Shown here in pieces: positions 3,931-19,926 of a stretch of 43,027 bases of DNA (its first letter is position 1; every line of letters begins with the position of its first letter). The stretch is taken from positions 1 to 43,027 of the IMG/VR virus record IMGVR_UViG_3300032080_000009. One strand, 5' to 3'. Source of the DNA: a virus. The position numbers and the translations under genes are program-made. The notes beneath the pieces were generated by a model, which was given only the letters and a program-made list of their open reading frames with translations, had not been told where the DNA came from and made no database searches.

Positions 3931-4088
3931 CCGCGCACGATTGGCGTCGCGGGCGCACGCGGCGATATCGCACGTTCGGCGGCGCGGTCGTCGACGTCGA
4001 GCTCGTTTGTCGCCGCTGCGGCACGACGAAGAGTGCGGGCGATGTCGTGCGAGAGGAATGCGAGCCGCCTGCCGAGTCGGCCGAATGA
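3927..4088 (+). CDS. hypothetical small protein (53 aa, contains CRRCG)
   Basis: ATGA overlap upstream (3927) and downstream (4085). It is absent from the ORF track because it is short. Confidence 0.5.
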   Translation: MTAHDWRRGRTRRYRTFGGAVVDVELVCRRCGTTKSAGDVVREECEPPAESAE

Positions 4089-5869
4089 CCGCCCCGACGA
4101 TCGAGCTCGACCCCGATGCCGGCGTCGAGATGCTGCCCGGCTACCGCGTCGATCCGTGGTACGGCACGACGGCATGGGTCACGCTCCCATGGCCCGAGAC
4201 GCAGGCCGAGAAAGACGCGCTCATCGAGAGCTCGCTCGGCCCGGGCGTCATCGATTGGGCGGAGGGGCGGGGCGAAGGGCCCGGGCTCGTCGACTACCAA
4301 AACGGCGGCCCTTGGACGTATACGGCCGGGCAGAAACGCTTTCTGATCCTTTGGTACGCCTACGACTCGCGCGGGCGCTTTCTCTACCGGCGCGGGGCGA
4401 AGCGCGGCGCGAAGGGCACGGGGAAAGACCCGTTCGGCGGCTCGGTCTGCCTCGCCGAGCTCGTCGGGCCGACGCAACTCGTGCTCGATGCCGACGGGTG
4501 GCACGGCGAGTCGCACGGAATGCCGCTCGTGCAGATCGCGAGCAACTCAGAGGCGCAGTCGAAAGACGTGCTGCGCGTCGCTAACGCGATGTGCTCGAAA
4601 GACTTTCGCGCGTACTACGATCTCGACTGCGGCGAGACGCGCACGATCGTCAAGGGCACGGGCGGTCGCATCGAAGTGCTCACGGCGTCGGAATCGAGCG
4701 CCGAAGGCGACCCGGCGACCTTCGTCTTTCTCAACGAGACGCACCATATGACCGAATCGAGCGGCGGTCACCGGGTCGCGAAAGTCGTGCGACGCAACGT
4801 GGGCAAGTCGCCGGCTCATCTGCAGGCGCGCACGCTCGACGGCACGAATGCGCACATGCAAGGCGGCGACTCGATCGCCGAGCGCACGTACGTCGCGTGG
4901 CAGGCGCAGGTGGCGGGCAAGGCGGCGCGGCGAGACATTCTGTACGACTCGATCGAAGCGCCGCCGACGACTGACCTGTTCAACGACGCGAGCCGGCAGG
5001 CCGGCCTTCGTGCCGCGTACGCCGATGCCCATTGGGCCGACCTTGAGCGGCTTGACGGCGAGGTGCTCGACCCCGAGACGCCGGTCGCCGACTCGATTCG
5101 GTACTACCTCAACGGGCTCGCGGCGGCCGAAGACGCATGGGTCGACCCGCGCAAGATCTCGGCGCTCGCGCGCCCGCAGGTGCGCATCGCCGACGGCGAG
5201 CAGGTCGCGATGTTTCTCGACTGCTCGAAGTCGGGCGACGTGACCGCGCTCGTCGCGTGCCGGCTCTCCGACGGCTTCGTGCAGCGGCTCGGCGCATGGG
5301 TCCCACCGCGCGGCACGGCTGGGAAGGGGTGGCTCGTCGACCGCGAGCAGGTCGACGGCGCGGTGCGCGGCGCATGGGCGAAATACAAGGTCGTATGGTT
5401 CGGCGTCGACCCGTCGCCGGCGAAGGACGACGAGACCGAGCTCAACTATTGGATGCCGCTCGCCGACGCATGGCACCGCGACTTCAGTAAGCGGCTCAAA
5501 GTGTGGGCTACCGGCGGCGCGAAAGTCGGGCACTCGGTGCTCTTCGACATGCGGATCAAGACGCTCGGCGGCGCGGCGCGTAACGCGCAATTCGTGCAAG
5601 CGGCGATGCAGACGCAGGACGATATCGACGAGACGGGCACGTTCCTATGGGATGGCGACCCCCTCATGCTCGCGCATTTCACGCAGGCGAAAGGCCGGCC
5701 GACGCCGTGGGGCCGCACGCTCGGCAAGGTGACCCGCGACTCGTCGAAGCACGTCGACCTCGCCGTTTCTGCAGTCGGGGCCCGCATGGGCAGGCGTATC
5801 GTGTTGAATAGCGGCAAGGTGCGGGCGCGGTCGGCACGAGCAGGCGGCACGGGGAAGGCGGTTTTCTAG
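4085..5869 (+). CDS. terL: terminase large subunit
   Basis: 594 aa from the internal ATG 4085, which is coupled by ATGA. It has a Walker A-like GAKGTGKD, FVFLNETHH, and a C-terminal nuclease-sized domain. It lies directly upstream of portal. Confidence 0.9.
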   Translation: MTAPTIELDPDAGVEMLPGYRVDPWYGTTAWVTLPWPETQAEKDALIESSLGPGVIDWAEGRGEGPGLVDYQNGGPWTYTAGQKRFLILWYAYDSRGRFLYRRGAKRGAKGTGKDPFGGSVCLAELVGPTQLVLDADGWHGESHGMPLVQIASNSEAQSKDVLRVANAMCSKDFRAYYDLDCGETRTIVKGTGGRIEVLTASESSAEGDPATFVFLNETHHMTESSGGHRVAKVVRRNVGKSPAHLQARTLDGTNAHMQGGDSIAERTYVAWQAQVAGKAARRDILYDSIEAPPTTDLFNDASRQAGLRAAYADAHWADLERLDGEVLDPETPVADSIRYYLNGLAAAEDAWVDPRKISALARPQVRIADGEQVAMFLDCSKSGDVTALVACRLSDGFVQRLGAWVPPRGTAGKGWLVDREQVDGAVRGAWAKYKVVWFGVDPSPAKDDETELNYWMPLADAWHRDFSKRLKVWATGGAKVGHSVLFDMRIKTLGGAARNAQFVQAAMQTQDDIDETGTFLWDGDPLMLAHFTQAKGRPTPWGRTLGKVTRDSSKHVDLAVSAVGARMGRRIVLNSGKVRARSARAGGTGKAVF

Positions 5870-7360
5870 GTGGCGATCGAGTCCCGCGGCGCGGTCGTTG
5901 CGCTCGCAAAAGAGCTGCACGCGACACATCTGCGCGAGCTCGAAGAGCTCGACGTGCTGCGGCGCTACGTGACCGGCAAGCAGGCCTTGCCGCTCGTCGT
6001 CCCCCGTGACGCGCCCCGCGAGGTGCAGGAGATGGCGCGCATTTCGCGGATCAACATCATCTCGATTGTCGTGAACGCGCTCGTCGAGAGTCTCTACGTC
6101 GACAACATGCGTGCTCTCGACGACGCACCCGCGCCCGAGCTCGACCCGGAAGATCTCGACCCCACGCAGCTCGACGAGCCGGGCGACGGCGAGCAGGTCG
6201 TCTCGCGCATCTGGGAAGTCTGGCAGCGCAACAAGCTCGACCGGGGGCAGAGTGGGCTCTACCGCGCCGTCTTCACGTACGGATGGGCGTACATGGTCGT
6301 CACGAATGGCGACCCCCTGCCCGTCGTGCGACCGGTCTCGCCGCGCAGCATCACTGCGCTCTACGACGACGACCCCGATTGGCCCGTCTTCGCGCTCGAA
6401 AAGCGGCGAAACGGCAGGTGGTCGCTCTACGACGAGACGCACGTCTACTCGCTCGGCCGCGACGAAAAGGGCGACTGGACGGTGCTCGGCGAGCGCCCGC
6501 ACGGGCTCACCTACTGCCCGGTCATCCGCTACGTCGACGCCGACGATCTCGATCTCGACAACGAGCCCGAGTTCTCGCCGGCCGCGTACGCGCGGGGCGT
6601 GCAGTCGAGCATCGTCGCCGGGCAGGTCGCGCCGCTCATGACGCTGCAGGATCAGGCTGACGTTACGACGTTCTCACTGCGGGCGGCCGAGTGGTATACG
6701 GCCTTCCGGCAGCGCTGGATCGTCGGGTGGACGCCGGAGAGCAAGGCGGCGAAAGTCGCGGCCGGCGCGTCGCAGATGTGGACCTTCGACGCCGACCCCG
6801 ACGAAGTGAAGCTCGGCGAGTTCGGCGAGACGACGCTCGAAGGCTACTTGCGCTCGCGCGACGCGACGGCTCGCTTCGCGGCGACGCTCTCGCAGACGCC
6901 CGTGCATGAACTGATCGGCGAGCTCGTGAACCTCTCGGCCGAAGCGCTCGCGGCGGCCGAAGCCGGCCGTGACCGCAAGGTCGACCTGCGCAAAACGGGC
7001 AACGGTGAGAGCCACGAGCAGACGGCCGGCGCGATCGGCGACCTGCTCGGGCTCGACGTGCCCGATGACATCGAAGTCGTCTGGCGCGACACAAGCGCCC
7101 GAGCCTTCGGTGCGATCGTCGACGGGCTCGGCAAGCTCGCGCAGATGCTCGGCGTGCCGCCCGAAGCGCTCTGGGAGCGCATTCCGGGCGCGACCCGGCA
7201 GGAGATCGCCCGGTGGAAGCAGCTCGCCGCGAAGGGCGACTCGATGGCGGCGCTTACCCGGCTGCTCGATCAGCAGGCCGGCGAGACGCCGCCGACCGGC
7301 GCGCCCGGCGAGCGCACGTCACCCGGCGGCGTCATCCTGCCGCCCGGCGTGGAAGTCTGA
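5870..7360 (+). CDS. portal protein
   Basis: 496 aa, GTG start abutting the terL stop. Size and position fit, and the N-terminus LRELEELDVLRRYVTG is portal-like. Confidence 0.88.
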   Translation: MAIESRGAVVALAKELHATHLRELEELDVLRRYVTGKQALPLVVPRDAPREVQEMARISRINIISIVVNALVESLYVDNMRALDDAPAPELDPEDLDPTQLDEPGDGEQVVSRIWEVWQRNKLDRGQSGLYRAVFTYGWAYMVVTNGDPLPVVRPVSPRSITALYDDDPDWPVFALEKRRNGRWSLYDETHVYSLGRDEKGDWTVLGERPHGLTYCPVIRYVDADDLDLDNEPEFSPAAYARGVQSSIVAGQVAPLMTLQDQADVTTFSLRAAEWYTAFRQRWIVGWTPESKAAKVAAGASQMWTFDADPDEVKLGEFGETTLEGYLRSRDATARFAATLSQTPVHELIGELVNLSAEALAAAEAGRDRKVDLRKTGNGESHEQTAGAIGDLLGLDVPDDIEVVWRDTSARAFGAIVDGLGKLAQMLGVPPEALWERIPGATRQEIARWKQLAAKGDSMAALTRLLDQQAGETPPTGAPGERTSPGGVILPPGVEV

Positions 7361-7362
7361 CC

Positions 7363-8148
7363 GTGGCGACGACGCCGCTCGGGGCCCGTCTGACGACCGC
7401 GTACCGGGCCGAGCAGCTCGCCGCACAGGCGGGCTCGCTGCGGCAACTCGTGCTGCTCTGGCGGGCGGTCGACGTGACGAACCTCTCCGAGACGATCGAC
7501 GTCTTCGCCCGGGCGGCGGCGCTGCTCGGCGGGCAGGGCTTCGACGCGAGCGCGATCTCGGCCGCGCAGTACGTGACCGAGTTCCGCGAAGCCGAGCTCG
7601 GCGTCGGCATCGAAGCGCGCATCGCGCAGCGGCCGGCGCAGGCGTACATCGCCGGGCAGATTCGCGGCGCGGCGCTCTCGGGCATCATCGACGCGCGTAA
7701 GGCGGGTAAGTCGATCGACTTCGCCGGCCGCAACGGGCTCGTCAAGGCGATCGGCAGCTTCGGCCGCATCATGCTCGGCGGCGGCCGGCAGACGATCACG
7801 CGCACCGTTGCCGTCGACCGCAAGGCGCTCGGATGGATGCGCGCGACGAGCGGCTCACCGTGCACGTTCTGCCGCATGATCGCGAGTCGCGGCGCGCAGT
7901 ACAAGACCGAGCGCTCGGCGTCATTCCAACCGCATGACCACTGCGGCTGTACGCCCGAGCCGCTCTACTCCGACGCCGACGAGACGCTCGGTGCCGCCGC
8001 GCAGGGTGCGAAATTCAAGGGCGAATACGACTCGGCGCAGGCATGGGCCCGCTCGAATGGCACAATGTCTCAAGGTACGAGCAATAATGCACTCAACAAC
8101 TACCGACGATGGCTCGCCGCAGGCCGGCCGGGAGCGGGTAGCAAGTGA
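7363..8148 (+). CDS. MuF-like minor capsid / head morphogenesis protein
   Basis: GTG 7363 follows just after the portal stop. The C-terminal motif is GSPCTFCRMIASRGAQYK...FQPHDHCGCTPEP. Confidence 0.8.
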   Translation: MATTPLGARLTTAYRAEQLAAQAGSLRQLVLLWRAVDVTNLSETIDVFARAAALLGGQGFDASAISAAQYVTEFREAELGVGIEARIAQRPAQAYIAGQIRGAALSGIIDARKAGKSIDFAGRNGLVKAIGSFGRIMLGGGRQTITRTVAVDRKALGWMRATSGSPCTFCRMIASRGAQYKTERSASFQPHDHCGCTPEPLYSDADETLGAAAQGAKFKGEYDSAQAWARSNGTMSQGTSNNALNNYRRWLAAGRPGAGSK

Positions 8149-8163
8149 CGGGAGCAACCCGGT

Positions 8164-8790
8164 ATGCCTACTGACGACGATGGCGACGACAAGACCGAAA
8201 CGACGTTCACCCGAGCGCAGATGGCCCGAGAGGTCAATCGGCAGGTGCGCGAGAAGGTCTCGGCGGCGCTGGCGGAATACGGCGACCTCGAAGAGCTCAA
8301 GCGCAAGGCGTCCGAAGCTGACAAGCAGAAAACGCAGCTCGACAAGGTTTCCGAGCAGCTCGACGCGCTGACGAAGCGTGCCGAAGTTGCTGAGATCGAG
8401 AACGATCGGCGCAAGGTCGCCGACGAGCTCGGGCTCACTCCGAAGGAAGCGAAGCGACTGCGAGGCAAGACGTACGCCGAGCTCAAGGCCGACGCCGATG
8501 AGCTTGTCGACGATCTCGGCATCGACGTCAAGGCGCGCAAGAACGGTAAGACGAAGACGAAGGGCAAGACGACCGACGACGGCGACGCTGCCGACGACGA
8601 GTCGTCGAGCGACGACGGCGACACGGACGACGACGGCGACAACGACGAGCAGCAGACCGCACCCGAGCGGCGGACGGCCTCACGGCGGCGACCGCGCGAG
8701 CTGCGTTCCGGCGCTCCCATGTCGGCCGGCGACGACCGCGACGCGAGCGACCCGCTTAAGCTCATCGAGAACGTGCCGCGAGGCAGGTAG
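8164..8790 (+). CDS. capsid scaffolding protein
   Basis: 208 aa, highly charged and coiled-coil-like (EELKRKASEADKQKTQLDKVSEQLDAL) with an acidic tail. It lies immediately upstream of the capsid gene. Confidence 0.7.
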   Translation: MPTDDDGDDKTETTFTRAQMAREVNRQVREKVSAALAEYGDLEELKRKASEADKQKTQLDKVSEQLDALTKRAEVAEIENDRRKVADELGLTPKEAKRLRGKTYAELKADADELVDDLGIDVKARKNGKTKTKGKTTDDGDAADDESSSDDGDTDDDGDNDEQQTAPERRTASRRRPRELRSGAPMSAGDDRDASDPLKLIENVPRGR

Positions 8791-8835
8791 TAACAGCGGA
8801 CGGAACGGCCGGCCGCGCGAGATAGGGGATATGGC

Positions 8836-9816
8836 GTGCCTAACACGTTTCTCAAGCCGAGCGTTATCGCTCGCGCGACCGTTGGTCTGCTCTACCGTGA
8901 GCTGACTGTCGCTCGTACCGTCTGGACTGACGCGATCAACCCGGGCGAGTTCTCGGGCGCTCTCAACGACACCGTGTCGATGCGCGTGCCGGCTCGCCGG
9001 GTCGCCCGTAAGCGCACCCTGCGCGCGGGTACCGCCATCGTCAACGACGTCTCGACCGAGTTCTCGGTGCCGGTCAAGCTCGACACCGACGTCTACAACG
9101 GCGCGCCGATCACCGACGAAGAGCTCACGCTCGACATCACCGACTTCGCCGCGCAGGTGCTCGCCCCGCAGGTGCGCGCCGTCGTCGAAGGCATCGATGA
9201 CGAGGTGATCAACGAGATCGAGAACGCCGACTACTCCGGCGGCATGATCGTCGACCCGACGAACACCGATCTCATCGTCTCGGGCCAGACTGACTGGTAC
9301 TTCGCCGCGCTGCGGGCCCGCACGAAGCTCAACGAGAAGCACGTCCCGCAGGAGGGTCGCACGCTGCTCATCGGCACGACCGTCGAAGAGAAGATCATGC
9401 GCAGCGACCGCTTCGTGCGCTTCGACTCTCGCGGCCCGGGTGCCGAGACCGCGCTCGAAGGCGCGACGATCGGTCGGATCGCCGGCTTCGACGTCGTGCT
9501 CTCGACCGAGATCGACCCCGACGACGCCTACGCTTACCACCGCTCGGCCTTCGTCGCCGCGACTCGGGCCCCGCTCGTGCCGCGTGGCGCAGCCTTCGCG
9601 CAGGTGCGCGGCGCGGCCGTCGGCATGGGTGCCAGCGAGTTCTACAACGGTCTGTCGGTCCGGTGGCTCATGGATTACGACTACACGAACACGACCGACC
9701 GCTCGCTCGTCAACACGTGGATCGGCACCGCGCAGGTGAAAGACCCCGTGGCCCCGCAGAACCCGGCGTCGGCGATGACCAACCAGCGCGCCGTCGCCAT
9801 TCGGGGTAACAGCTGA
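8836..9816 (+). CDS. major capsid protein (HK97-fold type)
   Basis: 326 aa, GTG start after AGGGGAT. Its position after the scaffold and its composition are typical. Confidence 0.85.
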   Translation: MPNTFLKPSVIARATVGLLYRELTVARTVWTDAINPGEFSGALNDTVSMRVPARRVARKRTLRAGTAIVNDVSTEFSVPVKLDTDVYNGAPITDEELTLDITDFAAQVLAPQVRAVVEGIDDEVINEIENADYSGGMIVDPTNTDLIVSGQTDWYFAALRARTKLNEKHVPQEGRTLLIGTTVEEKIMRSDRFVRFDSRGPGAETALEGATIGRIAGFDVVLSTEIDPDDAYAYHRSAFVAATRAPLVPRGAAFAQVRGAAVGMGASEFYNGLSVRWLMDYDYTNTTDRSLVNTWIGTAQVKDPVAPQNPASAMTNQRAVAIRGNS

Positions 9817-9817
9817 C

Positions 9818-10165
9818 ATGCCGTACACAGTCGCAGTGCTTAACCTCGCGGTCGATGCGATCGCGGGGGCCGGCGCGTACATCAGCGCGCACACTGGCGA
9901 CCCGTCGACGACGGGCGCAAACGAGGTCGCGGGCGGCTCGTACGCGAGGCAGCTCACGACGTGGGGCACGGCCGCCAACGGCGAGCGTGCCGGCTCGCAG
10001 GTGAACATTCCGATTCCGGCGTCGACCACCGTGACCCATTGGGGCATCTGGTCGGCGGCGAGCTCGGGCACGTTCCGGGGCGGCTTCGCTCTCGCCGCTT
10101 CGGAGGTCTTCGGCTCGGCCGGCACGCTGCAGCACACGCCGACGCTCGACGTCAACGCGGTCTAA
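9818..10165 (+). CDS. hypothetical structural protein
   Basis: 115 aa with the motif SAHTGDPSTTGANEVAGGSYARQ, which is recurrent in phage structural modules. The function is not assignable. Confidence 0.7.
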   Translation: MPYTVAVLNLAVDAIAGAGAYISAHTGDPSTTGANEVAGGSYARQLTTWGTAANGERAGSQVNIPIPASTTVTHWGIWSAASSGTFRGGFALAASEVFGSAGTLQHTPTLDVNAV

Positions 10166-10172
10166 CCGAGCT

Positions 10173-10213
10173 CCCGAGCAGGCCTGCTTACCCCCGTGAG
10201 CGGCCTGCTCGGG
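10173..10213 (+). terminator. 12-bp perfect hairpin CCCGAGCAGGCC / GGCCTGCTCGGG after the capsid gene pair
   Basis: Perfect inverted repeat with a 17-nt loop in a 71-bp intergenic gap. Confidence 0.55.
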
Positions 10214-10236
10214 TCTGACCACGAGGGGCGGTCGTC

Positions 10237-12942
10237 GTGACGATCACACTCGCCGGGGCAACCGGCGTCTCGACGACCGCAGCGGCGCGAGGCACGACGT
10301 CGACCACCGTTGCGTATACGGCGGTCGCGGCCGGCCGCATGGCCGTCATCACGGTCGCGATCAAGCCGAGCACCGCGACCGCAGGCACCGCGCCGTCGGG
10401 GTGGACGCAGGTCGTCAACGCCACGGGCGGCACGGGCACCGACGCGACCGGCACGGGCACGAGCCGGGTCGTGAAGTACTACCGCGAGCTCACGGGCGGC
10501 GAGACCGGCTCGGTCACGGTCACGGCGACGAGCTCGACGACCATCGAAGCAGCGATGGACGTCTACGCGAAGACGCGCGGCTCGTGGGCGACCCCGATCG
10601 GCGTCTCGGCGGCCGACACGACGCAGGGCACCAACCCGAGCGCGGCGAGCGGTACATGGGCCGAAGCGCTCAACGTCGGCGACTTCGTGCACGTCGGCTA
10701 CGCGACCAACTCGGCGAGCACGACCGCATCGAGCGCGCCGACGGTCGTGCAGGCGGGCACGACGTTCGGCACCGCGACCGCCCGCTCGCGGGTCGGCAAC
10801 TCTTCCGGCACGACCGGCTCGGTCTTCACGTGGGACGCGGCCGTCACGGGCGTGACCGCAGGCGCGGGCGCAGGCACGGGCGCGACGACGTTCGGCATGA
10901 CGTGGACGATCTCGTCTTCGGGTGCCTTCGGCGCGGTGCGCTTGCGCGAATACGACTCGATGCTCGCCGTCACCGACAACTTCGACGATGGCACGCAGAA
11001 TGCCAACGTCTACGGGCCCGACTCGTACGGCACTTTCTCGGAGTCCGGCGGCCGGCTGCGCGTCGCCATCTCGACGACCTACTCGGCGGTCTACTCACCG
11101 AATAAGTACCGCTTCGATGACATCTACTTCCGGGCGTATCCGGCGGCCGGGAATGGCGCGACGACCGAGGCTTACTCGGCATTCTGGCTCGACTCGAAGT
11201 CGCAGGCCGACGGCACCGTGCTCGGCTTTTTCTACGACGGCATTAACGATCAGCTATATCTAGCGTCATGGGTGGGCTACTCCGACGCTTCGCAGGTCGT
11301 GCTTTCCGGGGCGGCGACCGGGCATCCCTACTGGCGTCTGCTGCGCTCGGGCAGCAATGTGCTCTGGCAGACGTCGACCAACGGCTCGACATGGGTCACG
11401 CAGCGCACGGCGGCGATGCCGACATGGGTCTCGGCGGGCACCGATCTCGCGATGTGGTGGGAAGGTCACCGCGCCGAAGGCACCGCCAACAACTACGAGA
11501 TCGACAACCTGAACATCACGGCCGCGCTCGTTATCACGACGAGTGGCTCGGCCGTCGCCAACGCAACTCGCATCGCTACGAGCTCGAAGCTCGCCACCGT
11601 GGCGCGCTCGGCCGTCGCCGAAGCGACCGCCCGGGCCACGGCCGGCAAGCTGCGCGCCGTCGCCGCGAGCGCCGTCGCTGAGGCCGCCGCTCGGGCGACG
11701 ATCTCGAAGCGCGCCACGATCGCCCGCTCGGCCGTCGCTGAGGCGACCGCCCGCGCCGTTACCGTGCGGGCCCGGCTCACGATCGGCATCGCCACGGCCG
11801 AAGCTACGGCTCGCGCCGTCGCCGGCCGGCTCGTCACCGTGGCCCGATCAGCGACCGCAGAGGCGACCGCCCGGGGCGTCGCCGGCCGGCGAGTCACGAT
11901 CGCGCGCTCGGCCACGGCCGAAGCGACCGCTCGGGCGACGACCGTCACGGCTCGCGGCACGATCGGCAAGGCTGACGCCACGGCGACCGCCCGGGCAACG
12001 GCGGCGACCGCCCGGCTCACGGCGCGCAGCGCGCAGGCGACGGCCGGCGCGACCGCGACCCGTTCGACGTCTCGGGTGACCACGAGCACGGTCGTCTTCA
12101 CGGCGACCGCTCGGGGCACGGCCGGCCGGCTCGCGGCGACCGCTCGCACCGCGACCGCGCAGGCGACCGCCCGAGCGACCGCAGGCGCACGTAAGACGAC
12201 GACGGGCACCGCGAGCACAGTCGCGACGACTTCGGCCGTCACGCGCACGCTGAGGGTCACGGCGGGCCGAGCGCAGGCGGTCGCAGGCGCGAGCGCGTCA
12301 ACGGGCAACTTCGAGCAGCACCCGACCGAAGGCACGGCCGCTGCAGCGGCGACCGCCCGGGCGACGACGGCGAAGCGCGCTACGGCCGCCCGGTCGGCGA
12401 CGGCGACGGCCGGCGCGCGCAGCACGAGCGCGACCGCGCGCACGACGACCGGCCGCGCGCCGGCCGTCGCCACGGCGCGGGCGGCGACCGGTGCCGAGAC
12501 GATCATCGTCACGACCGGCTCGGCTACGGCGACCGCGACTGCTCGGGCCACGGTCGCGAAGCGGGCGGCCGTCGCACGCACGGCTGCCGCGACCGCAAGC
12601 TCGTCGGCACTCATCGCATCTCGTCGCACGAAGAGCGGCTCGGGCGTCGTCATCGCGACCGCGTACGCCACGACCGGCAACACCGAGCAGCACCCGACGA
12701 CCGGCCGAGCGCAGGCGACCGCAGGCGCACGTGCGGGCGCGCGAGGCTTCCATCGGACGACCGGCCGGGCCACGGTCGCCGCGACCGCGTCGTCTCGCCG
12801 CCCGGCGGGCACGAGTGGCCGGCCGCCGATCGTGAGCTCGACTCGCCCCGGCCGCAGCGTGACCGTGGGAGAATCGAGCAGGATTACGACAGTGACCTAC
12901 CCGCGACGCATTCTCGACGTGAGACGTCCGTACCGGGTCTAG
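10237..12942 (+). CDS. large repeat-containing virion protein (possible head or tail fibre)
   Basis: 901 aa, GTG start. It has a Thr/Ala/Gly-rich N-terminal domain and a jelly-roll/lectin-like middle segment (YWRLLRSGSNVLWQTSTNGSTW). The C-terminal ~400 aa consist of tandem 20-aa units such as VARSAVAEATARATAGKL. Confidence 0.75.
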   Translation: MTITLAGATGVSTTAAARGTTSTTVAYTAVAAGRMAVITVAIKPSTATAGTAPSGWTQVVNATGGTGTDATGTGTSRVVKYYRELTGGETGSVTVTATSSTTIEAAMDVYAKTRGSWATPIGVSAADTTQGTNPSAASGTWAEALNVGDFVHVGYATNSASTTASSAPTVVQAGTTFGTATARSRVGNSSGTTGSVFTWDAAVTGVTAGAGAGTGATTFGMTWTISSSGAFGAVRLREYDSMLAVTDNFDDGTQNANVYGPDSYGTFSESGGRLRVAISTTYSAVYSPNKYRFDDIYFRAYPAAGNGATTEAYSAFWLDSKSQADGTVLGFFYDGINDQLYLASWVGYSDASQVVLSGAATGHPYWRLLRSGSNVLWQTSTNGSTWVTQRTAAMPTWVSAGTDLAMWWEGHRAEGTANNYEIDNLNITAALVITTSGSAVANATRIATSSKLATVARSAVAEATARATAGKLRAVAASAVAEAAARATISKRATIARSAVAEATARAVTVRARLTIGIATAEATARAVAGRLVTVARSATAEATARGVAGRRVTIARSATAEATARATTVTARGTIGKADATATARATAATARLTARSAQATAGATATRSTSRVTTSTVVFTATARGTAGRLAATARTATAQATARATAGARKTTTGTASTVATTSAVTRTLRVTAGRAQAVAGASASTGNFEQHPTEGTAAAAATARATTAKRATAARSATATAGARSTSATARTTTGRAPAVATARAATGAETIIVTTGSATATATARATVAKRAAVARTAAATASSSALIASRRTKSGSGVVIATAYATTGNTEQHPTTGRAQATAGARAGARGFHRTTGRATVAATASSRRPAGTSGRPPIVSSTRPGRSVTVGESSRITTVTYPRRILDVRRPYRV
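11560..12800 (+). repeat. in-frame tandem repeat array, period 60 nt (occasionally 57 or 63), about 20 units
   Basis: Repeated strings GCCGTCGCCGAAGCGACCGCCCGGGC and variants line up in successive 60-nt sequence lines (11602, 11662, 11722 and onward). The boundaries are approximate. Confidence 0.85.
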
Positions 12943-12957
12943 TAGGGGAGCGACAGC

Positions 12958-13677
12958 GTGCAGCGATACGACCCGGGCGACAGTGCCGATCTGCGGCACA
13001 TCGTGCGCGATCTCGACGGCGCGCTCGTGGCGGCCGACGTCGACTTCGAGGTGACGAAGCCGAGCGGCGCGACCGAGCAGATCACGCCGTCGACCCCGAG
13101 CGTCGGCATCTACGACGTGACGATTCCGGCGAGCGTGCTCGACGAGCTCGGCCGCTACCGCTACGAGTGGCAGGTCTCGGGCGACGTGAGCAACACGCGC
13201 TCGGGCGCGCTCTACGTCGCCGACGCCGATGACGTCGACGAGCTGCCGCCGCTGGTCGACATCGAGCGGCTCTTCGCGAAGATCGGCTACGTGCCCGACG
13301 GGGCCGAGCTCGACCGCGCGGCCGAGCTGCTCGACGAAGCGAGCGAGCTCGTGCGCGACGTCGCCGAGAAGACGTGGACCGACGAGACGACGGGCGTCGT
13401 GACCGGCGTGCCGCGCCGCGTGCGCTCGATCGTGGTCGAAGCCGCCTACCGCGCGTTCACCAACCCGGAAGGGCTCGTACAGCGCACGATCGGCGACTCG
13501 TCGAAGTCGTGGGACCGCTCGGGGCGTGAGGGCGGGCAGATCGTCTACCTGACCGACGACGAAGAGCGCGCGGTGCGCAAGGCGGCCGGCGCGAGCTCGA
13601 TGACCGTCGCCACGCTCTACGTGCCGAACGGTGGCGGCTGCGAGCTCGATACGTGGGCGGCGGCGACCCTACAGTGA
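12958..13677 (+). CDS. head-to-tail adaptor (gp6-like connector) with an N-terminal extra domain
   Basis: 239 aa, GTG after AGGGGAG. The C-terminal half (LDRAAELLDEASELVRDVA...RSIVVEAAYRAF) is connector-like. Confidence 0.65.
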   Translation: MQRYDPGDSADLRHIVRDLDGALVAADVDFEVTKPSGATEQITPSTPSVGIYDVTIPASVLDELGRYRYEWQVSGDVSNTRSGALYVADADDVDELPPLVDIERLFAKIGYVPDGAELDRAAELLDEASELVRDVAEKTWTDETTGVVTGVPRRVRSIVVEAAYRAFTNPEGLVQRTIGDSSKSWDRSGREGGQIVYLTDDEERAVRKAAGASSMTVATLYVPNGGGCELDTWAAATLQ

Positions 13678-14021
13678 TCGGCATCTCCATGCACGAGCTA
13701 CCCGAGCGGCTCACGCATCAGCGACGGCAGACCGTACCCGATGATCTCGGCGGCGAGAGCTCGCAGCTCGTTGAACTCGGCACCGTGCCGGCGAAGGTCT
13801 CGCAGCCTGCGGCGGCCGAGCAGCTCGAAGCCGAGCAGGCGGGCTCGACCATGACGATGATCGTGCACATGATGCCCGACGCCGACGTGCGGCGCGGCGA
13901 CACGCTCGTGCGCGTCGACGGCGAGCTGCTTCGCGTGAAGTACACCATCCACCCGTCGCAGCGCGACGCCTACCTGCGCGCCGACTGCGAGCTCGTGCAG
14001 AGTGAAGGGGACGTGACGTGA
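13674..14021 (+). CDS. head closure / head-tail joining protein
   Basis: GTGA overlap with the upstream gene. It is about 115 aa. Assignment rests on position and size. Confidence 0.55.
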   Translation: MIGISMHELPERLTHQRRQTVPDDLGGESSQLVELGTVPAKVSQPAAAEQLEAEQAGSTMTMIVHMMPDADVRRGDTLVRVDGELLRVKYTIHPSQRDAYLRADCELVQSEGDVT

Positions 14022-14680
14022 CCGCGCCGACATGGGCAATCCTCGTGCCGACGATCTCGCAGCGCGAGCCGCTTTTTCTGCGCTTGCTCGTCGTGCTGCT
14101 GCCGCAGCTCGACGCGGCCGGCGGCCGGGCTCGCGTCATCGCGTGGCGCAACGACGGCGAGCCGCGACTCGCCGAAGTTCGCGACGCGATGATCAACTCG
14201 GCCGACGCCGAGTATGTGAGCTTCGTCGACGACGACGATCTCGTCTCGCCCGACTACGTGAGCAGCATCGTCGACGCGCTCGACAAACGCCCCGATCATG
14301 TCGGTTTCCGAGTCGCGTACTGCGTCGACGGCATCGAGCGCGAGATCGTCGACCACTCGCTGCAGCACGGCCGATGGCACCGCAATGCGGCCGGCCGGCT
14401 CGTGCGCGACTTCACTCACCTTGATCCGATCCGCCGTGACATCGCCACGCGCGGGCGCTTCGCCACGGCGAAGAACGGCCGCCCCGAAGATCGGGTTTGG
14501 TGCCGGCAGGTGCGCCCGTTCCTGTTCTCCGAGACGTACGTCGACGACGTGCTCTACCGCTACCTCTACTCGGAGAGCACGTCGTCGTGGCAGCGCCCCG
14601 AGCGGCTCGTGCCGTCGGCCGCGCCGCGACCGGTCGTCGATCACCCCTACTTCGAATGGCACGAGAGGTCCGACCGATGA
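14018..14680 (+). CDS. glycosyltransferase (GT-A/family 2-like)
   Basis: It has WAILVPTISQREPLFLRLL and the DxD-type motif YVSFVDDDDLVSPDY. GTGA overlap upstream. Confidence 0.8.
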   Translation: MTAPTWAILVPTISQREPLFLRLLVVLLPQLDAAGGRARVIAWRNDGEPRLAEVRDAMINSADAEYVSFVDDDDLVSPDYVSSIVDALDKRPDHVGFRVAYCVDGIEREIVDHSLQHGRWHRNAAGRLVRDFTHLDPIRRDIATRGRFATAKNGRPEDRVWCRQVRPFLFSETYVDDVLYRYLYSESTSSWQRPERLVPSAAPRPVVDHPYFEWHERSDR

Positions 14681-15420
14681 GCCGCCTACTGATGATCGTG
14701 CCGACCCGCTCGCGCCCGCAGAACGTCGAGCCGCTCGTCGCCGCGTGGCTCGATACTGGCGGTTTCCTGGCGGCCGATCTCATGCTCGTGGTCGACGTCG
14801 ACGACCCCGCCTTCGACGCCTACTGCCTCGCGGCCGAGCGGGTGAACAAGCAGCTCGCGCACTTCGGCGACGGCACGTTCATCCTGCGCTGCGCGCCCCG
14901 GCACGAGCAGCTCGTGCCGAAGCTCAACTCGGCCGCGCTTAGTGTGGCGGATGACTACGAGCTGCTCGGCTTCGCCGGCGACGACCACCTGCCGCGCACG
15001 AGCGGATGGGCGCAGCGCTTCGTGGAGCTCTTCGAGCGGAACCGCTCGGCCGGCGTCGCCTACCCTGACGATGGCTATCAGCACGAGAAGCTCGCGTCGT
15101 CATGGGTGATGCTCGCCGACGTCGTGCACGCGCTCGGCCGCATGGTGCCCGCACCCGTCGAGCATCTCTACTGCGACAACTCGATCATGGACGTCGGCCG
15201 CGAGGCGGGCTGTCTCGTCTACCTGCCCGACGTGCTCATCGAGCACGAGCACCCGGTCGCCGGCAAGCGCGAGACCGACGAGCAGTACGAGCGTGTCAAC
15301 GGCCGCGAGCAGTATCGTCGTGACCGACCGGCCTACAAGCGATGGAAGCGTGACGGCGGTCTCGTGACCGATGCCGGCATCGTGCGCGGCGTCATCGATG
15401 GGAGAGTGAGCAACGCATGA
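14677..15420 (+). CDS. glycosyltransferase (second, GT-A-like)
   Basis: Starts at internal ATG 14677 with an ATGA overlap. It has MIVPTRSRPQNVEP, VVDVDDP and FAGDDH. Confidence 0.7.
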   Translation: MSRLLMIVPTRSRPQNVEPLVAAWLDTGGFLAADLMLVVDVDDPAFDAYCLAAERVNKQLAHFGDGTFILRCAPRHEQLVPKLNSAALSVADDYELLGFAGDDHLPRTSGWAQRFVELFERNRSAGVAYPDDGYQHEKLASSWVMLADVVHALGRMVPAPVEHLYCDNSIMDVGREAGCLVYLPDVLIEHEHPVAGKRETDEQYERVNGREQYRRDRPAYKRWKRDGGLVTDAGIVRGVIDGRVSNA

Positions 15421-15959
15421 CCGAGATCTACGTCGCCAAAAACTCCGGCGTGCTGCGGGCCCCGAGCGGCGAGCAGCACCGACTTGTCGCCGGGCAGACG
15501 CTCGCCGACGGCCGGCACGAAGCCGTGACCGGCTCGCCCGACTCATGGGTGCCGATGGTCGTCGAGCTCTCGGTCGACGGCGGGCAGGGCCCGCAGGACA
15601 CCGAGGCCGATCCCGCGCTCTTCTTTGAGCGCATGACCGTCGCCGAAGCCGAGCGCGACGAGCTGCTCAACGTGCTCAACGGCATCGCGACCATTCTCGA
15701 TGAGCGCGGCCTGCTCGAAGGTGTCGATCGCGAGATGCCCGGCTGGTTGCCGCAGGCGGTCAAGCGCATCGCGAACACGCTCGCCGAGCCGCTCACCGAC
15801 GAGCCCGAGCAGGTCGTCGTCGCGGGCCCGGCCGACCCCGAGACGCCGGAGGGTCGCGCCACGATCCGCGAGTGGGCATGGGCGCAGGGACTCGAAGTCT
15901 CCGAGCGCGGGCAGCTGCCGAAGGCGGTCGTCGAAGCGTACCGGCGGAACCATGCCTAG
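15417..15959 (+). CDS. protein with a C-terminal Lsr2-type DNA-binding domain
   Basis: The C-terminus ATIREWAWAQGLEVSERGQLPKAVVEAYRRNHA matches the Lsr2 C-terminal pattern IREWA..G..VS.RG..P..V..AY. Confidence 0.7.
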   Translation: MTEIYVAKNSGVLRAPSGEQHRLVAGQTLADGRHEAVTGSPDSWVPMVVELSVDGGQGPQDTEADPALFFERMTVAEAERDELLNVLNGIATILDERGLLEGVDREMPGWLPQAVKRIANTLAEPLTDEPEQVVVAGPADPETPEGRATIREWAWAQGLEVSERGQLPKAVVEAYRRNHA

Positions 15960-17976: not shown

Positions 17977-19926
17977 GTGGCGACGTTGCAAGACCTGCTC
18001 ATTAAGGTCGGCATCGATCCGAAGGGCGTCGACAAGGGCGGCCGGGAGATGCAAGGCAAGCTGTCGAAGACGTGGGACGGCATGAAAAAGACGTCGATGG
18101 TCGCGGGTGCGGCGATCGGCGTCGCGGCCGGCGCGGCGATCTTGCAAGGCGTGCTCTCGGGCCTTGAAAGCGAGGTCGCGACCGACAAGCTCGCCGCGCA
18201 GCTCGGCGCGACCGGGCCCGAAGCCGAAGTGCTCGGCAAGCAGGCCGGCGACCTCTACAAAAAGGGTCTCGGCGACTCGATGGAAACGGTGTCGTCGGCG
18301 CTCGGCGCAGTGAAGACGAGCTTCGGCAATCTCGCCGACGACGCGATCGAGCCCGTCACCGAGAAGGTGCTCAATCTGGCGAAGGCCTTCGAGATCGACA
18401 CCGCCCGGGCGGCGCAGGTCGCCGGGCAGGCAGTGTCGAGCGGGCTCGCGAAAGACGCCACGAGCGCGCTCGATCTGCTCACGGTCTCGATGCAAAAGGT
18501 GCCGGCCGCCGTGCGCGAAGACCTGCTCGATGCCGTCGACGAATACGGACCATTCATGTCCGCTATCGGCATCACGGGCGAGCGCGCCTTCGGGCTGCTC
18601 ACGAAGAGCGCCGAGAAGGGCATGTACGGCATCGATAAGACCGGCGACGCGCTCAAAGAGTTCGGCATCCGGGCGACCGACATGGGCGCCGCGAGCAAGG
18701 CCGGATACGACCTGCTCGGCATGTCGCAGAAAGACATGACGGCCGAGCTGCTCAAGGGCGGCGACGCTGGGGCCGAAGCTTTCGACTCGATCATCGACGG
18801 CCTGCTCGGAATGAAAGACCCGGTGGCGCAGTCGCAAGCAGCGCTCGCGCTCTTCGGCACGCCGCTCGAAGATCTCGGCGTGACCGAGATTCCGAAGTTC
18901 CTCGGCGGGCTGCAGAACACGAAGGGCGCTCTCGGCGAGGTGGCCGGCGCGACCGACCGGCTCGGCGACACGCTCAACGACAACGCCGCCACGAAGCTCG
19001 AAGCGTTCAAGCGGCAGGCGCAAGCGGCGCTCGTCGAGCAGCTCGCGAAGGCGCTGCCGGCGATTGAGGCGGTCTTCGGGTGGATGCAAAAGAACGGCGA
19101 CGTCGTGCAGATCGTCGCGGTCGCGCTCGGCGTGCTCGCGGTCGCGCTCGGCATCGCCGCCGCTGCGCAATGGGCGATGAACAGCGCTCTACTCGCCAAC
19201 CCGATCACGTGGATCATCGTCGGTATCGTGGCGCTCGTCGCCGCGCTCGTCTACGTCGCCACGAAGACGCAATTCTTTCAAACGATCTGGCGCGCCGTTT
19301 GGGGATTCATGAAAACGGTTGGCGCATGGTTCGCCGGCCCCTTCGCCGGATTCTTTGTCAGCACGTGGAACAAGATTGTCTCGTCTTTCCAGCGTGCGCG
19401 CGGGCAGCTCTCGACGGCGATCAATGCCGTCAAGAATTTCTTCGTCTCGTGGTACAACAAGGCATCTGAGATGATCACGAAGATCATCGGTAAGGGCAAG
19501 CAACTCGCCGATTGGTTCCGAGGCCTGCCCGGGCGCATCGGCGGCTCGCTGCGAAACGTGTTCAACGGCCTATGGTCCGGTTTCCGCTCGGTCGCAAACC
19601 GCATTATTTCCGGGTGGAATAACCTGAGTTTCACGGTCGGCGGCGGCAACTTCGCAGGCGTCTCGCTGCCGAGCGTCACGGTCTCGACGCCGAACATTCC
19701 GTATCTCGCCGCCGGCGGCATCGTCACCGGGCCGACCGTCGCGATGATCGGCGAGGGTCGGCAGGACGAAGCCGTGATCCCGCTCGACCGCCTGCCCGAG
19801 CTCTCCGGCCGTGACGATCAAGTCGTCGTGCAGGTCGTGCCCGGCGGCGAGCGCGAGTTCCGTCGCTGGGTCAACAAGACGATTCGAGTGAAGGGCGCTC
19901 TCGGCCCGGCAGAGGCGGCGGTATGA
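17977..19926 (+). CDS. tape measure protein
   Basis: 649 aa, Ala/Gly/Leu-rich and helical, with internal hydrophobic segments (IVAVALGVLAVALGIAAAAQW). It follows the chaperones. Confidence 0.88.
   Translation: MATLQDLLIKVGIDPKGVDKGGREMQGKLSKTWDGMKKTSMVAGAAIGVAAGAAILQGVLSGLESEVATDKLAAQLGATGPEAEVLGKQAGDLYKKGLGDSMETVSSALGAVKTSFGNLADDAIEPVTEKVLNLAKAFEIDTARAAQVAGQAVSSGLAKDATSALDLLTVSMQKVPAAVREDLLDAVDEYGPFMSAIGITGERAFGLLTKSAEKGMYGIDKTGDALKEFGIRATDMGAASKAGYDLLGMSQKDMTAELLKGGDAGAEAFDSIIDGLLGMKDPVAQSQAALALFGTPLEDLGVTEIPKFLGGLQNTKGALGEVAGATDRLGDTLNDNAATKLEAFKRQAQAALVEQLAKALPAIEAVFGWMQKNGDVVQIVAVALGVLAVALGIAAAAQWAMNSALLANPITWIIVGIVALVAALVYVATKTQFFQTIWRAVWGFMKTVGAWFAGPFAGFFVSTWNKIVSSFQRARGQLSTAINAVKNFFVSWYNKASEMITKIIGKGKQLADWFRGLPGRIGGSLRNVFNGLWSGFRSVANRIISGWNNLSFTVGGGNFAGVSLPSVTVSTPNIPYLAAGGIVTGPTVAMIGEGRQDEAVIPLDRLPELSGRDDQVVVQVVPGGEREFRRWVNKTIRVKGALGPAEAAV

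Follow-up and report, generated by a model that had tools for sequence, protein, structure and literature searches.

Fibres built on a rope-and-bead plan were recognised only recently, and all of them by cryo-EM, in the podophage GP4 (2023) and in the Ounavirinae myophages Sf14 and Bas63 (2025). In Bas63, an extended "rope" runs through whisker dimers as a string runs through beads and completes their incomplete sandwiches; in GP4, a separate and longer rope protein bears five dimers (PMC12609058). The GP4 assembly, known as Fiber I, consists of gp80 dimers on a rope, held by a 93-aa Ig-like fiber-tail-adaptor (PDB 8jou). The baseplate arm of Staphylococcus phage 812 (9fko) is composed in a like manner, of the scaffold gp117, whose linkers bear six dimers of the segment gp118 (PMC13433997).

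Here, we examine a stretch of viral DNA of 43,027 nucleotides (IMG/VR record IMGVR_UViG_3300032080_000009, positions 1 to 43,027; hereafter, the window) in which a 901-aa protein ends in a long array of tandem repeats. We propose, with a probability of about 0.6, that this protein is the rope of an adhesion fibre of the rope-and-bead type, which would probably have its anchor at the neck. The proposal is made because the gene upstream belongs to the family PF23140 and so points to the known architecture in which an extended rope carries dimers of a small protein.

Position and domains of the 901-residue protein

The 901-aa gene is real. An earlier note, made from the letters alone, had placed it between the capsid and connector genes, and it is indeed present there as one large inserted structural gene, flanked by the major capsid gene on its 5' side and by the head-tail adaptor gene on its 3' side (Table 1). 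That account of the gene order had omitted the 115-aa ORF that separates the capsid gene from the 901-aa ORF.

Table 1. Coordinates of the fibre locus in the window (aa numbers are those of the 901-aa protein)
Feature	Positions	Strand	Proposed role or remark
Major capsid gene	8836..9816		phrog_283
115-aa "bead" protein, PF23140 family	9818..10165	+	proposed partner of the array
Stem-loop in the 71-nt spacer	10173..10213	+	possible partial terminator or mRNA stabiliser
901-aa ORF, stop included	10237..12942	+	GTG start; rope of the proposed beaded fibre
N-terminal Thr/Gly/Ala-rich beta domain, aa 1-240	10237..10956	+	proposed distal head domain 1
Middle domain, aa 241-427	10957..11517	+	proposed distal head domain 2, putative concanavalin-A-like lectin/glucanase fold
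Antisense ORF, 439 aa	11493..12812	-	composition artefact, no gene
Array, ~20 units of 20 aa, aa 434-860	11536..12816	+	proposed rope
Insertion GNFEQHPTEG, aa 690-699	12304..12333	+	interrupts the array
Insertion GNTEQHPTTG, aa 814-823	12676..12705	+	interrupts the array
C-terminal tail, aa 861-901 (...GRPPIVSSTRPGRSVTVGESSRITTVTYPRR...)	12817..12939	+	proposed virion-proximal anchor
Head-tail adaptor, 239 aa, unusually long	12958..13677	+	phrog_137; candidate fibre docking site
Glycosyltransferase gene	14018..14680		PF00535, phrog_14775
Glycosyltransferase gene	about 14680..15420		phrog_14945

In the AlphaFold model, residues 20-425 are confidently folded as two beta-rich domains. The first of these (aa 1-240) is all-beta, with a pLDDT mostly of 70-90, and a search of 1.84 billion representatives with its profile gives 3247 clusters at E<=1e-3, of which 437 reach E<=1e-30; the matches include secreted bacterial proteins, with tandem copies in the DUF6701 protein P0018. 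The middle domain (pLDDT about 80-93) is the part most likely to have a non-catalytic concanavalin-A-like lectin fold, much as the earlier note had supposed when it described this part as lectin-like or jelly-roll. Foldseek searches with the whole model returned GH16 glucanases and a GH43 C-terminal domain (E about 2e-5 to 1e-3; TM up to 0.68, normalised by target length) as well as actinophage minor tail proteins. These outputs come without query ranges; we infer that the fold matches belong to the middle domain because sequence similarity to these phage proteins lies there, tblastn with aa 241-451 finding Kromp gp22, Galactica gp11, Hiyaa gp13 and Ponzi gp58 of Streptomyces phages. The GH16 catalytic motif E-x-D-x-x-E is absent from the 901-aa sequence on direct reading, the nearest string (YEIDNLN, on the last strand) lacking the third Glu, and Pfam gives no match of any kind for the protein, GH families included; on these grounds we class it as lectin-like and not as a hydrolase.

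The repeat array and its candidate partner

The array comprises about 20-21 units once the insertions are subtracted, of which six are near-perfect (aa 451-570) and some 14 are degenerate. The consensus unit is K-L-x-T-V-A-R-S-A-v-A-E-A-T-A-R-A-T-A-G, with Ala at every second residue of positions 9-19. Its self-identity is 0.40 at lag 20 (z 12.7 vs shuffles) and 0.37 at lag 40 (z 10.9), which agrees with the previous remark that the repeats hold frame and period. In the DNA, Tandem Repeats Finder detects a 60-nt unit in only 2.8 and 3.6 copies, at 68-70% matches. The six clean units share just 61% identity in DNA and 60% in protein, and their differences predominate at third codon positions (150, compared with 98 and 100 at the other two); the array is therefore old and not recently expanded. 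The motif of its insertions, G-[NS]-x-E-[QH]-H-x-T-x-G, recurs in P0001, P0002, P0016 and L022.

Self-identity in the array alternates between negative values at odd lags and positive values at even lags, which indicates beta strands. There is no period of 3 or 7 in the array, as collagen G-X-Y triplets or heptads would produce, only one Gly occurs per 20 residues, and the AlphaFold monomer model predicts no helices there; the earlier judgement that the array is neither collagen-like nor a coiled coil is thus upheld. The same single-chain model has a pLDDT <50 for aa 428-901 and gives the array no fold. This is what is expected of a rope that donates strands, and equally of any obligate oligomer, which a monomer prediction cannot model. 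Of the novel fibre or beta-solenoid suggested previously, a fibre component is still the most likely identity, but the model lends no support to a self-standing fold.

The 115-aa protein encoded just upstream matches Pfam PF23140 with 52.3 bits (cut-off 27; E 9e-14) and also phrog_240. Its AlphaFold model (pLDDT 94) has an N-terminal helix (aa 5-18) followed by a beta-sandwich, and its top six Foldseek matches in the PDB are the Bas63 whisker (9mt4_L/K/M/I, TM 0.75-0.80), the Sf14 whisker (9c39_K, 0.78/0.82) and GP4 Fiber I (8jou_a); overall, TM is 0.68-0.82 for the first five and 0.49-0.57 for 8jou_a. Beyond these three assemblies the model matches almost nothing else, the seventh match, 9fko_A of phage 812, an arm segment of the type also known from A511 and T4 gp8, being weak (E 0.023, TM 0.56/0.40). 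By tblastn, the bead is found in 757 phage records (585 Mycobacterium, 156 Gordonia). The phage records that carry it are mostly annotated "hypothetical", "head protein" or "minor tail protein", and PHROGs labels the family "head protein".

The 901-aa gene begins 71 nt past the end of the bead gene. The stem-loop in this spacer has a folding energy of -45.5 kcal/mol (z -3.7), and 0 of 200 shuffles fold equally well; L001 and L022 have a hairpin at the equivalent place, with another stem sequence and only z -1.2 and -0.8. A consensus terminator scan at the stem-loop found nothing, and no T-run follows the stem. Such an element would fit high expression of the bead and low expression of the rope.

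At the other end of the protein, the C-terminal tail is kept in P0001, P0002 and the 574-aa protein of L022, even where the head domains differ, and homologues on other phage backbones have other tails (e.g. PPW..PFIE...EGG in P0007, P0011 and P0015). The adaptor encoded next is also peculiar. Its match to phrog_137 (Ad1) is limited to aa 80-220, and the extra N-terminal domain of ~80 aa gives a weak match to MG2, a beta-sandwich (aa 4-79; 22.5 bits, under the cut-off of 32.8). In the PDB it matches an adaptor (8zdj_a) at aa 103-184 and, weakly, alpha-2-macroglobulin (E 0.046). Adaptors of 237-238 aa lie 3' of the fibre gene in L001, L004, L022 and L023, and Attoomi, with a related capsid protein and without the fibre module, has a 123-aa adaptor directly 3' of its capsid gene.

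In the fibre that we envisage, the two N-terminal domains would together form a distal head that binds a carbohydrate of the host cell wall. Each repeat would stay extended and form a strand, one face of it all Ala, that inserts into the groove of the PF23140 protein and completes its incomplete beta-sandwich. Bead dimers would in this manner be threaded along the array, and fibre length would follow from the repeat count. The last ~40 residues would anchor the fibre to the virion, and the extra N-terminal domain of the adaptor, at the neck, is the most likely site; synteny and the sub-threshold MG2 match weakly indicate this location. The fibre could serve either accessory or primary adhesion.

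A bolder version of this proposal, about which we are doubtful, would have one bead dimer on each repeat, the repeat number alone fixing the length, and the neck fibre acting as the main host-recognition device. About 20 repeats (~400 aa) would measure roughly 130 nm when extended, and would reach past the tip of a roughly 100-nm tail in a siphophage whose tail tip is a single protein. The tail tip is minimal in the window, with one 903-aa gene between the tape measure and endolysin genes, and this favours the main proposal as well.

Conservation of the gene pair and competing explanations

A gene with repeats of ~20 aa and a PF23140 gene are adjacent in most of the loci examined, which comprised the window, nine metagenomic relatives, mycobacteriophages, Gordonia and Microbacterium phages, and GP4. 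The PF23140 gene lies directly 5' of the 901-aa homologue in L001, L003, L004, L012 and L013, and a reverse search from the bead led to a repeat-bearing gene just 3' of it in L022, L023 and L024. Among the bead's neighbours, lag 20 stands out in NormanBulbieJr gp20 (z 10.6), GenevaB15 gp35 (z 11.9), Magritte gp27 (z 8.6) and the 325-aa gene beside gp80 of GP4 (z 7.2), and lag 18 in BarrelRoll gp28 (z 10.5), with z values of 2.4 or less in five window proteins scanned as controls. Gustav gp28 has about six units of 21-22 aa by eye, the top signal of the scan being lag 10, in its Pro-rich N-terminus, and the bead neighbour in Bromden has a weak period only (z 1.0). No bead gene was detectable beside the 14-aa-repeat homologue P0004 (L002), nor was any PF23140 gene detectable in the Hiyaa locus, though gp13 there shares the slot of the 901-aa protein and resembles it in layout.

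Within the family, the arrays have periods of 20, 21, 22, 18 or 14 aa with unrelated consensus sequences, and several have a super-period of 40 aa, which a polar rope carrying dimers would be expected to produce. Where the backbone is the same, relatives have retained the bead (72-93% identity), the type of rope, the C-terminal tail and a 237-aa adaptor; their head domains are swapped, and their arrays range from ~5-6 units (in a protein of 293 aa) to ~20 units. In Magritte, the head includes a GDPD phosphodiesterase domain. The fibre module sits among tail-fibre or lysis genes in mycobacteriophages of clusters F, K and M and in L013.

An array that assembles by itself into a homo-oligomeric (e.g. 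trimeric) beta shaft, the PF23140 protein then being a separate component of neck or tail, seems to us unlikely. Adenovirus and reovirus triple beta-spirals or phage beta-helices are the models for such a shaft. The alternating small/polar pattern and the single Gly per unit fit a two-strand repeat, the low pLDDT would be no surprise in an obligate oligomer, and P0004 and Hiyaa gp13 possess arrays in loci where the bead gene went undetected. A shaft nevertheless leaves unexplained why ~20-aa arrays stand beside PF23140 genes in most loci, across unrelated backbones and hosts, and why a rope is threaded through all the solved PF23140 assemblies; the complete divergence of the repeat sequences between relatives, under a preserved period, is, moreover, unusual for a core that packs on itself.

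It is rather improbable that the array is merely a disordered, Thr/Ala-rich, O-glycosylated spacer of the mucin type that distances the lectin domains from the particle. Its composition (21% Thr, 33% Ala) and its pLDDT below 50 would suit such a spacer, but Thr-richness is not conserved in the family, homologous arrays being rich in ETD/R, DLRW, QSNL or Ala/Leu, and a strict register of 20 aa over ~400 aa at 61% DNA identity indicates a structural constraint and not one of composition alone. The two glycosyltransferases that the earlier note had placed nearby are both real genes, and the connector cluster has such a pair in the window, L001, L004 and L022; Magritte also has a glycosyltransferase nearby. 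Virion O-glycosylation has reportedly been described in mycobacteriophages, by Freeman and colleagues in 2023. Glycosyltransferases are, however, present also in L023, where the array has only ~5-6 units, and glycosylation of the array by the two nearby enzymes is pure speculation. The rope and the mucin-like spacer are compatible: glycans could also be attached to the head domains, or to a rope with its beads bound.

Still less probable is a head decoration or head fibre on the capsid hexamers or vertices (Hoc-like or phi29 gp8.5-like). The gene does lie 3' of the capsid gene, its homologue in L002 is located 5' of the scaffold and capsid genes, and there is the PHROGs label of the bead family to consider. 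Pfam, however, identifies neither an Ig-like nor a known capsid-binding domain in the protein, whose fold matches are ConA-like and not Ig-like; every PF23140 assembly solved so far is suspended from a collar, at the neck or tail, and the fibre gene co-occurs with the extended adaptor.

There is, finally, the frame of the array to consider. GC3 in the sense frame is 0.78-1.00 over the entire 901-aa ORF, and it cannot separate the two strands because the sense frame and the antisense 439-aa frame have their third codon positions in common; the antisense frame even has the more typical-looking pattern of GC1 > GC2. On the antisense strand, sense Ala, Thr and Arg codons read Ala, Val and Arg, and stops would come chiefly from sense Tyr codons, of which the sense frame has almost none where the antisense ORF lies. 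That the annotated translation of the C-terminal half is wrong, the true product being the antisense one or the 3' part being non-coding repeat DNA, is scarcely credible, because the sense frame continues without a stop from two folded, homologous N-terminal domains to a conserved tail ending 16 nt 5' of the next gene and is retained as a single long frame in at least 15 homologues despite very different repeats; all neighbouring genes are on the + strand, and the antisense frame is the artefact that it had been taken for.

Consequences and comparison with described fibres

If the rope-and-bead proposal is true, a rope would be recognisable from sequence as tandem, strand-forming repeats of ~20 aa beside a PF23140 gene, and this architecture would extend to siphophages of the Actinobacteria. 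Were the bolder version with one dimer per repeat to hold, hundreds of gene pairs now called "minor tail" or "hypothetical" would be re-annotated as beaded fibres. Candidates for re-annotation occur in mycobacteriophages, Gordonia phages and other actinophages. The adhesin would be modular, with exchangeable heads (lectin-like, GDPD enzyme or glycine-rich domains) on ropes of 5 to >20 units, which bears on the prediction of host range and on the engineering of actinophages, therapeutic mycobacteriophages included. The locus also calls for caution with AlphaFold models, in which strictly periodic regions of low confidence can be partner-dependent strands and not disorder.

GP4 Fiber I resembles the proposed fibre in its bead, which belongs to the same Pfam family (PF23140, named after gp80) and has a matching fold, and in its candidate rope, the product of a separate gene beside the bead gene (325 aa, 20-aa period); the GP4 fibre hangs from the neck region. 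It differs in that GP4 is a Ralstonia podophage, whereas the phage here is an actinobacterial siphophage, and in that the rope here would be ~2-4x longer (~20 units vs five dimers) and is fused to ~425 aa of folded heads. No separate Ig-like collar or adaptor gene of the 93-aa GP4 type was found here, where it is the head-tail adaptor that has an extra N-terminal domain.

The bead finds its closest structural matches in the Ounavirinae collar-whisker complexes of Bas63 (9mt4) and Sf14 (9c39), with TM 0.75-0.82. In these, end-to-end whisker dimers on a rope are attached at the level of the neck adaptor and head-completion proteins, but the rope is a ~45-aa N-terminal extension of a 166-aa Ig-like collar, carries two dimers and is without a distal receptor-type domain; reinforcement of the head-tail joint or transient contact with LPS has been proposed as its role. 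The Sf17 collar has Cys52/69/90 as in the Bas63 collar, and its ~45-aa rope contains two ~22-aa pseudo-repeats for two dimers, which suggests that a dimer takes up one repeat; by analogy with GP4, each monomer would take up one. The phage 812 arm follows the same design principle, and its scaffold carries receptor-binding proteins, but it belongs to a myophage baseplate, its similarity to the bead is weak, and its scaffold has interspersed folded domains and no regular 20-aa array.

Hiyaa gp13 (a "minor tail protein" of 1110 aa, with relatives in KimJongPhill, Spocter and Keanu) occupies the same slot directly before the adaptor. Its middle domain is homologous (36% identity) and its C-terminal half has a degenerate 20-aa period (z 5.5), but its N-terminal domains are different; we know of no experimental localisation of it. 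The neck passage structure (collar-whisker) proteins of lactococcal 936 and P335 siphophages are, to our knowledge, self-trimerising and made without a bead protein. They bear carbohydrate-binding modules and would be a functional analogue of the fibre proposed here, as accessory fibres that display such modules at the head-tail junction of siphophages with a Gram-positive host.

The 901-aa gene and its repeat array

The window is an actinophage-like genome with a G+C content of 69%, whose structural operon lies on the forward strand. The features discussed here are collected in the following table, in which the bead gene and the rope gene are our names for the 115-aa and 901-aa ORFs.

Features of the window, in map order
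Feature	Position	Strand	Match or remark
HNH/endonuclease VII-like gene	2284..2919		directly 5' of the next gene
156-aa gene	2910..3380		phrog_226 ('minor tail protein') and a small-terminase family
Large terminase	3866..5869	+	
Portal	5870..7360	+	
Protease	7213..8148	+	
Scaffold	8164..8790	+	
Major capsid protein	8836..9816	+	
Bead gene (115 aa)	9818..10165	+	PF23140
Stem-loop	10173..10213		
Rope gene (901 aa)	10237..12942	+	phrog_14065
Interrupting motif, two copies	12304..12333, 12676..12705		
Head-tail adaptor (239 aa)	12958..13677	+	
Head closure protein	13653..14021	+	
Glycosyltransferase	14018..14680	+	PF00535/phrog_14775
Glycosyltransferase	about 14680..15420	+	phrog_14945
Lsr2-like gene	15417..15959	+	phrog_1223; tail genes downstream
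Tail-tip region	17977..22634		649-aa tape measure, 903-aa protein
Endolysin	23025..23792		follows a 151-aa ORF

The earlier note, made from the sequence alone, had described a very large ORF ending in tandem 20-aa repeats, and both parts of that description hold. GC3 is high in the ORF frame throughout, and composition divides the protein into four parts: a Thr/Ala/Gly-rich region (aa 1-240), an ordinary one (aa 241-455), the Ala/Thr/Arg array (aa 456-860), and an Arg/Pro/Ser-rich tail. Within aa 434-860 self-identity reaches 0.40 at a lag of 20 residues (z 12.7) and 0.37 at a lag of 40 (z 10.9); even lags give positive values and odd lags negative ones, an alternation that marks beta strands with a single uniform face. 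Of the units, six (aa 451-570) are near-perfect and the rest degenerate. The DNA of the six is only 61% identical, the differences falling mostly at third codon positions, and the array is therefore old and constrained and not the product of recent slippage. The GNxEQHPT insertions reported earlier are present twice, as GNxEQHPTxG (aa 690-699 and 814-823). In the more general form G-[NS]-x-E-[QH]-H-x-T-x-G this motif breaks the rope about every six units, and it recurs in the homologous proteins P0001, P0002 and P0016, in the related locus L022 and at the head-rope junction of locus L023; it may act as a hinge, bind a metal or serve for docking.

A 439-aa antisense ORF also spans the repeats, and we agree that it is an artefact. 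GC3 is unable to separate the two frames because third positions are common to both; the sense frame is preferred since folded homologous domains lead into it, a conserved tail closes it just 5' of the next gene, and every relative compared keeps it as a long frame, repeats included.

Several neighboring features deserve mention in their own right. The glycosyltransferase pair, lodged inside the head-tail connector cluster, is kept in L001, L004, L022 and L023 whatever the rope length; its possible substrates include the capsid, the tail tube, the head of the fibre and, as the earlier note suggested, the repeat array. Between this pair and the tail-completion genes the operon holds a gene for an Lsr2-like nucleoid-associated DNA-binding protein, whose counterparts in L001 and L022 belong to PF23359. 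The tail tip is minimal: the short tape measure gene is followed by that of just one 903-aa protein (phrog_5313; a stretch of it is phosphodiesterase-like, phrog_24476), and no separate distal-tail, tail-associated lysin or receptor-binding gene was recognised in this region, which would make an extra adhesion device plausible. The 156-aa gene near the left end is probably the small terminase. The phages nearest by terminase, TPA4 and the BritBrat group, carry a head module of another kind and lack a gene like the 901-aa ORF.

Folded domains and homologues of the 901-aa protein

An AlphaFold2 model built from a 17-sequence alignment is confident and all-beta over aa 20-425, and pLDDT falls below 50 over aa 428-901. 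The novel self-standing solenoid that had been proposed for the array is unsupported, as this model gives the array no fold. In the PDB, Foldseek matched the model to GH16 glucanases and to the C-terminal sandwich of GH43 enzymes, that is, to the concanavalin-A-like lectin/glucanase fold; among viral models it matched actinophage 'minor tail proteins' such as those of KimJongPhill, Tourach and GurgleFerb. Both searches used the whole model and their outputs carry no query ranges; we assign the matches to the middle domain because its own sequence matches are to phage proteins of these kinds, and with that placement the lectin-like middle domain of the earlier note is upheld. The sequence matches in isolated phages, the Streptomyces phages Kromp, Galactica, Hiyaa and Ponzi, are restricted to the middle domain, and Kromp gp22 is a protein of 207 aa that stands on its own, encoded where the tail-fibre genes end. 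As the middle domain contains no GH16 catalytic motif, we take it to be a carbohydrate-binding module and not an enzyme.

Megablast with the gene found no match among 50,697 phage records, Pfam and PDB sequence searches with the protein found none either, and its one PHROGs family is unannotated. A word-index search with the full-length query gave 20 homologues. The same index queried with an N-terminal-domain profile gave only 14 matches and missed the first set; low-complexity words hampered both searches, so that the size of the family had to be judged by an exhaustive profile search of 1.84 billion representatives. This returned 3247 clusters (50% identity) at E<=1e-3 for aa 1-240, apparently a large and unnamed family. 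The domain occurs, sometimes in tandem, in secreted bacterial proteins too (for example a DUF6701 protein), and in large bacterial proteins its copies follow signal-peptide-like N-termini (P0017, P0018, P0019, P0035-P0037). A visual impression that it also heads the rope proteins of NormanBulbieJr, Magritte and L024 was dropped, as profile searches gave zero matches even with filters off. A scan of genome contigs gave no prophage context, its single match, a distant one to the middle domain, lying in a Polyangia MAG.

All 20 homologues share the N-terminal domain, and most also have a middle domain, of one of two kinds. Their C-terminal halves are invariably tandem arrays with unrelated consensus sequences (ATARA-, QSNL-, ETD-, ATLTAAA- and DLRW-type), and the period is strikingly constant: 20 aa in most, 14, 18, 21 or 22 aa in the others, with a doubled super-period in several. 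That the period is conserved where the sequence is not suggests that something outside the array constrains its geometry. One subfamily (P0004, at L002 8001..10307, with P0005, P0047 and P0055) has the same N-terminal and middle domains and, in place of the 20-aa units, about 20 copies of a 14-aa repeat of the 'DDxDLRWAVRxxxT' type.

The neighboring PF23140 gene and candidate ropes in other phages

In Pfam the 115-aa protein scores well above the threshold of PF23140 ('Podophage GP4 fiber I protein gp80'). Its model (72-sequence alignment, pLDDT 94) is an N-terminal helix followed by a beta-sandwich, and its only significant PDB matches are the whiskers of the Ounavirinae myophages Bas63 (9mt4, TM 0.75-0.80) and Sf14 (9c39_K, TM 0.78/0.82) and Fiber I of the Ralstonia podophage GP4 (8jou_a); the next, weak, is the arm segment protein of phage 812. 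In Bas63, dimers of this family are arranged end to end around an extended rope, 'such as beads on a string', which threads the monomer grooves and fills out their incomplete sandwiches (PMC12609058). The rope of Bas63 belongs to an Ig-like collar protein, as its N-terminal extension, and holds two dimers; that of GP4 is a separate, longer protein with five dimers, interlocked with an Ig-like collar (PMC12609058). The baseplate arms of phage 812 follow the same principle (PMC13433997).

Of the six homologue loci compared, five, from at least three phage backbones, have a PF23140 gene immediately 5' of the homologue. None is detectable beside P0004 in the sixth, L002, and none was found in Hiyaa; the P0004-type fibre may be bead-less or have a different partner. 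In the reverse direction, close relatives found through the bead carry a repeat-bearing gene just 3' of it. By tblastn the bead occurs in 757 phage records, mostly of Mycobacterium and Gordonia phages, and a period scan of the genes adjoining bead genes in isolated phages gave a best lag of 20 aa for NormanBulbieJr gp20 (z 10.6), GenevaB15 gp35 (z 11.9), Magritte gp27 (z 8.6) and the 325-aa gene adjoining GP4 gp80 (z 7.2), and of 18 aa for BarrelRoll gp28 (z 10.5); five control proteins of the window gave various lags with z at most 2.4. In Gustav gp28 about six units of 21-22 aa are visible by eye in the translation, the scan's top signal being a lag of 10 from the Pro-rich N-terminus. Bromden is the sole weak case (z 1.0).

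The arrangement varies. In mycobacteriophages of the cluster F, M and K types (L014, L021 and L020; NormanBulbieJr gp20-gp21 is L014 4760..6327) the order is reversed, with the bead gene directly after a 340-400-aa 'minor tail protein' whose N-terminus bears the ~20-aa repeats; in GenevaB15 gp35 and BarrelRoll gp28 the repeats lead into a Gly_rich_2 domain. The Microbacterium phage Magritte (L018 4642..7928) has two PF23140 paralogues, gp25 and gp26, 5' of the 821-aa gp27, which joins a GDPD glycerophosphodiester phosphodiesterase domain to a head domain and to about 18 units of 20 aa; each of the three genes carries the annotation 'hypothetical protein'.

Two systems bear on the stoichiometry. 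The Sf17 collar, which shares Cys52/69/90 with that of Bas63, has a rope about 45 aa long for two dimers; this rope contains two pseudo-repeats of about 22 aa, pointing to a single repeat for each dimer. With about 8-11 repeats to five dimers, the 325-aa neighbor of GP4 gp80, a candidate rope, points to one for each monomer; it has no match among PDB sequences, even at E 10, and our literature search found no paper that names the GP4 rope gene.

A predicted rope-and-bead fibre

The 901-aa gene is a real finding and more than a low-complexity curiosity. Its best explanation, to which we give a probability of roughly 0.6, is a rope-and-bead fibre with predicted binding between the two neighboring products. 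The array would be the rope that carries the bead dimers, the number of units would set its length, the distal head (the folded N-terminal domains) would bind the receptor, and the C-terminal tail would anchor it proximally. Such a design should show exchangeable heads, variable unit numbers, and a constant tail, bead and adaptor, and this is the pattern seen in relatives on the same backbone, which share the portal, the protease and the capsid protein, the bead (72-93% identity), the 237-aa adaptor and the glycosyltransferases.

Rope proteins on the shared backbone
Locus	Length	Layout
Window	901 aa	N-domain, lectin-like domain, ~20 units, conserved tail
L001	818 aa	as in the window
L004	800 aa	as in the window, more divergent
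L022	574 aa	no N-domain; different lectin-like domain; same A/T/R rope and C-terminal tail
L023	293 aa	another head again; only ~5-6 units

The C-terminal tails track the phage backbone and not the type of head. We also considered a tail-length ruler, in which each repeat would bind one tail-tube ring; it is rejected because the repeat number varies from about 5 to 20 among these relatives.

The weakest step in the fibre reading is its attachment. The adaptor is about twice the usual size and has an extra N-terminal domain of about 80 residues, for which the only match is a sub-threshold one to MG2 (an alpha-2-macroglobulin-like beta-sandwich). This domain is kept in all relatives with the fibre module (237-238 aa). 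Attoomi, with a related capsid protein and no fibre module, has a 123-aa adaptor directly after the capsid gene, and in Bongo the capsid gene is followed by one small gene and then the connector genes. By likeness to the Ig-like collars of GP4 and Bas63, the extra domain would anchor the fibre at the neck. In cluster F, K and M mycobacteriophages and in locus L013 the two-gene module sits among tail-fibre or lysis genes.

The spacer that separates the bead and rope genes holds a strong stem-loop of about 18 base pairs (-45.5 kcal/mol, z -3.7). L001 (about 8149..8195) and L022 (about 5353..5399) have one in the same position, its stem differing in sequence and its z-score modest. It has no T-run, and a scan of 8700..13800 for consensus terminators found none. 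The stem-loop may act as a partial terminator or as an RNA stabiliser and in this way fix the ratio of bead to rope, and would be in keeping with strong expression of the capsid and bead proteins and weaker expression of the rope.

If correct, the rope-and-bead reading offers a signature by which an architecture known until now from cryo-EM only can be recognised in sequence, and would re-annotate many actinophage genes. The architecture itself is that of known fibres; the setting, an actinobacterial siphophage, and the form, a long regular rope fused to lectin-like heads, would be new.
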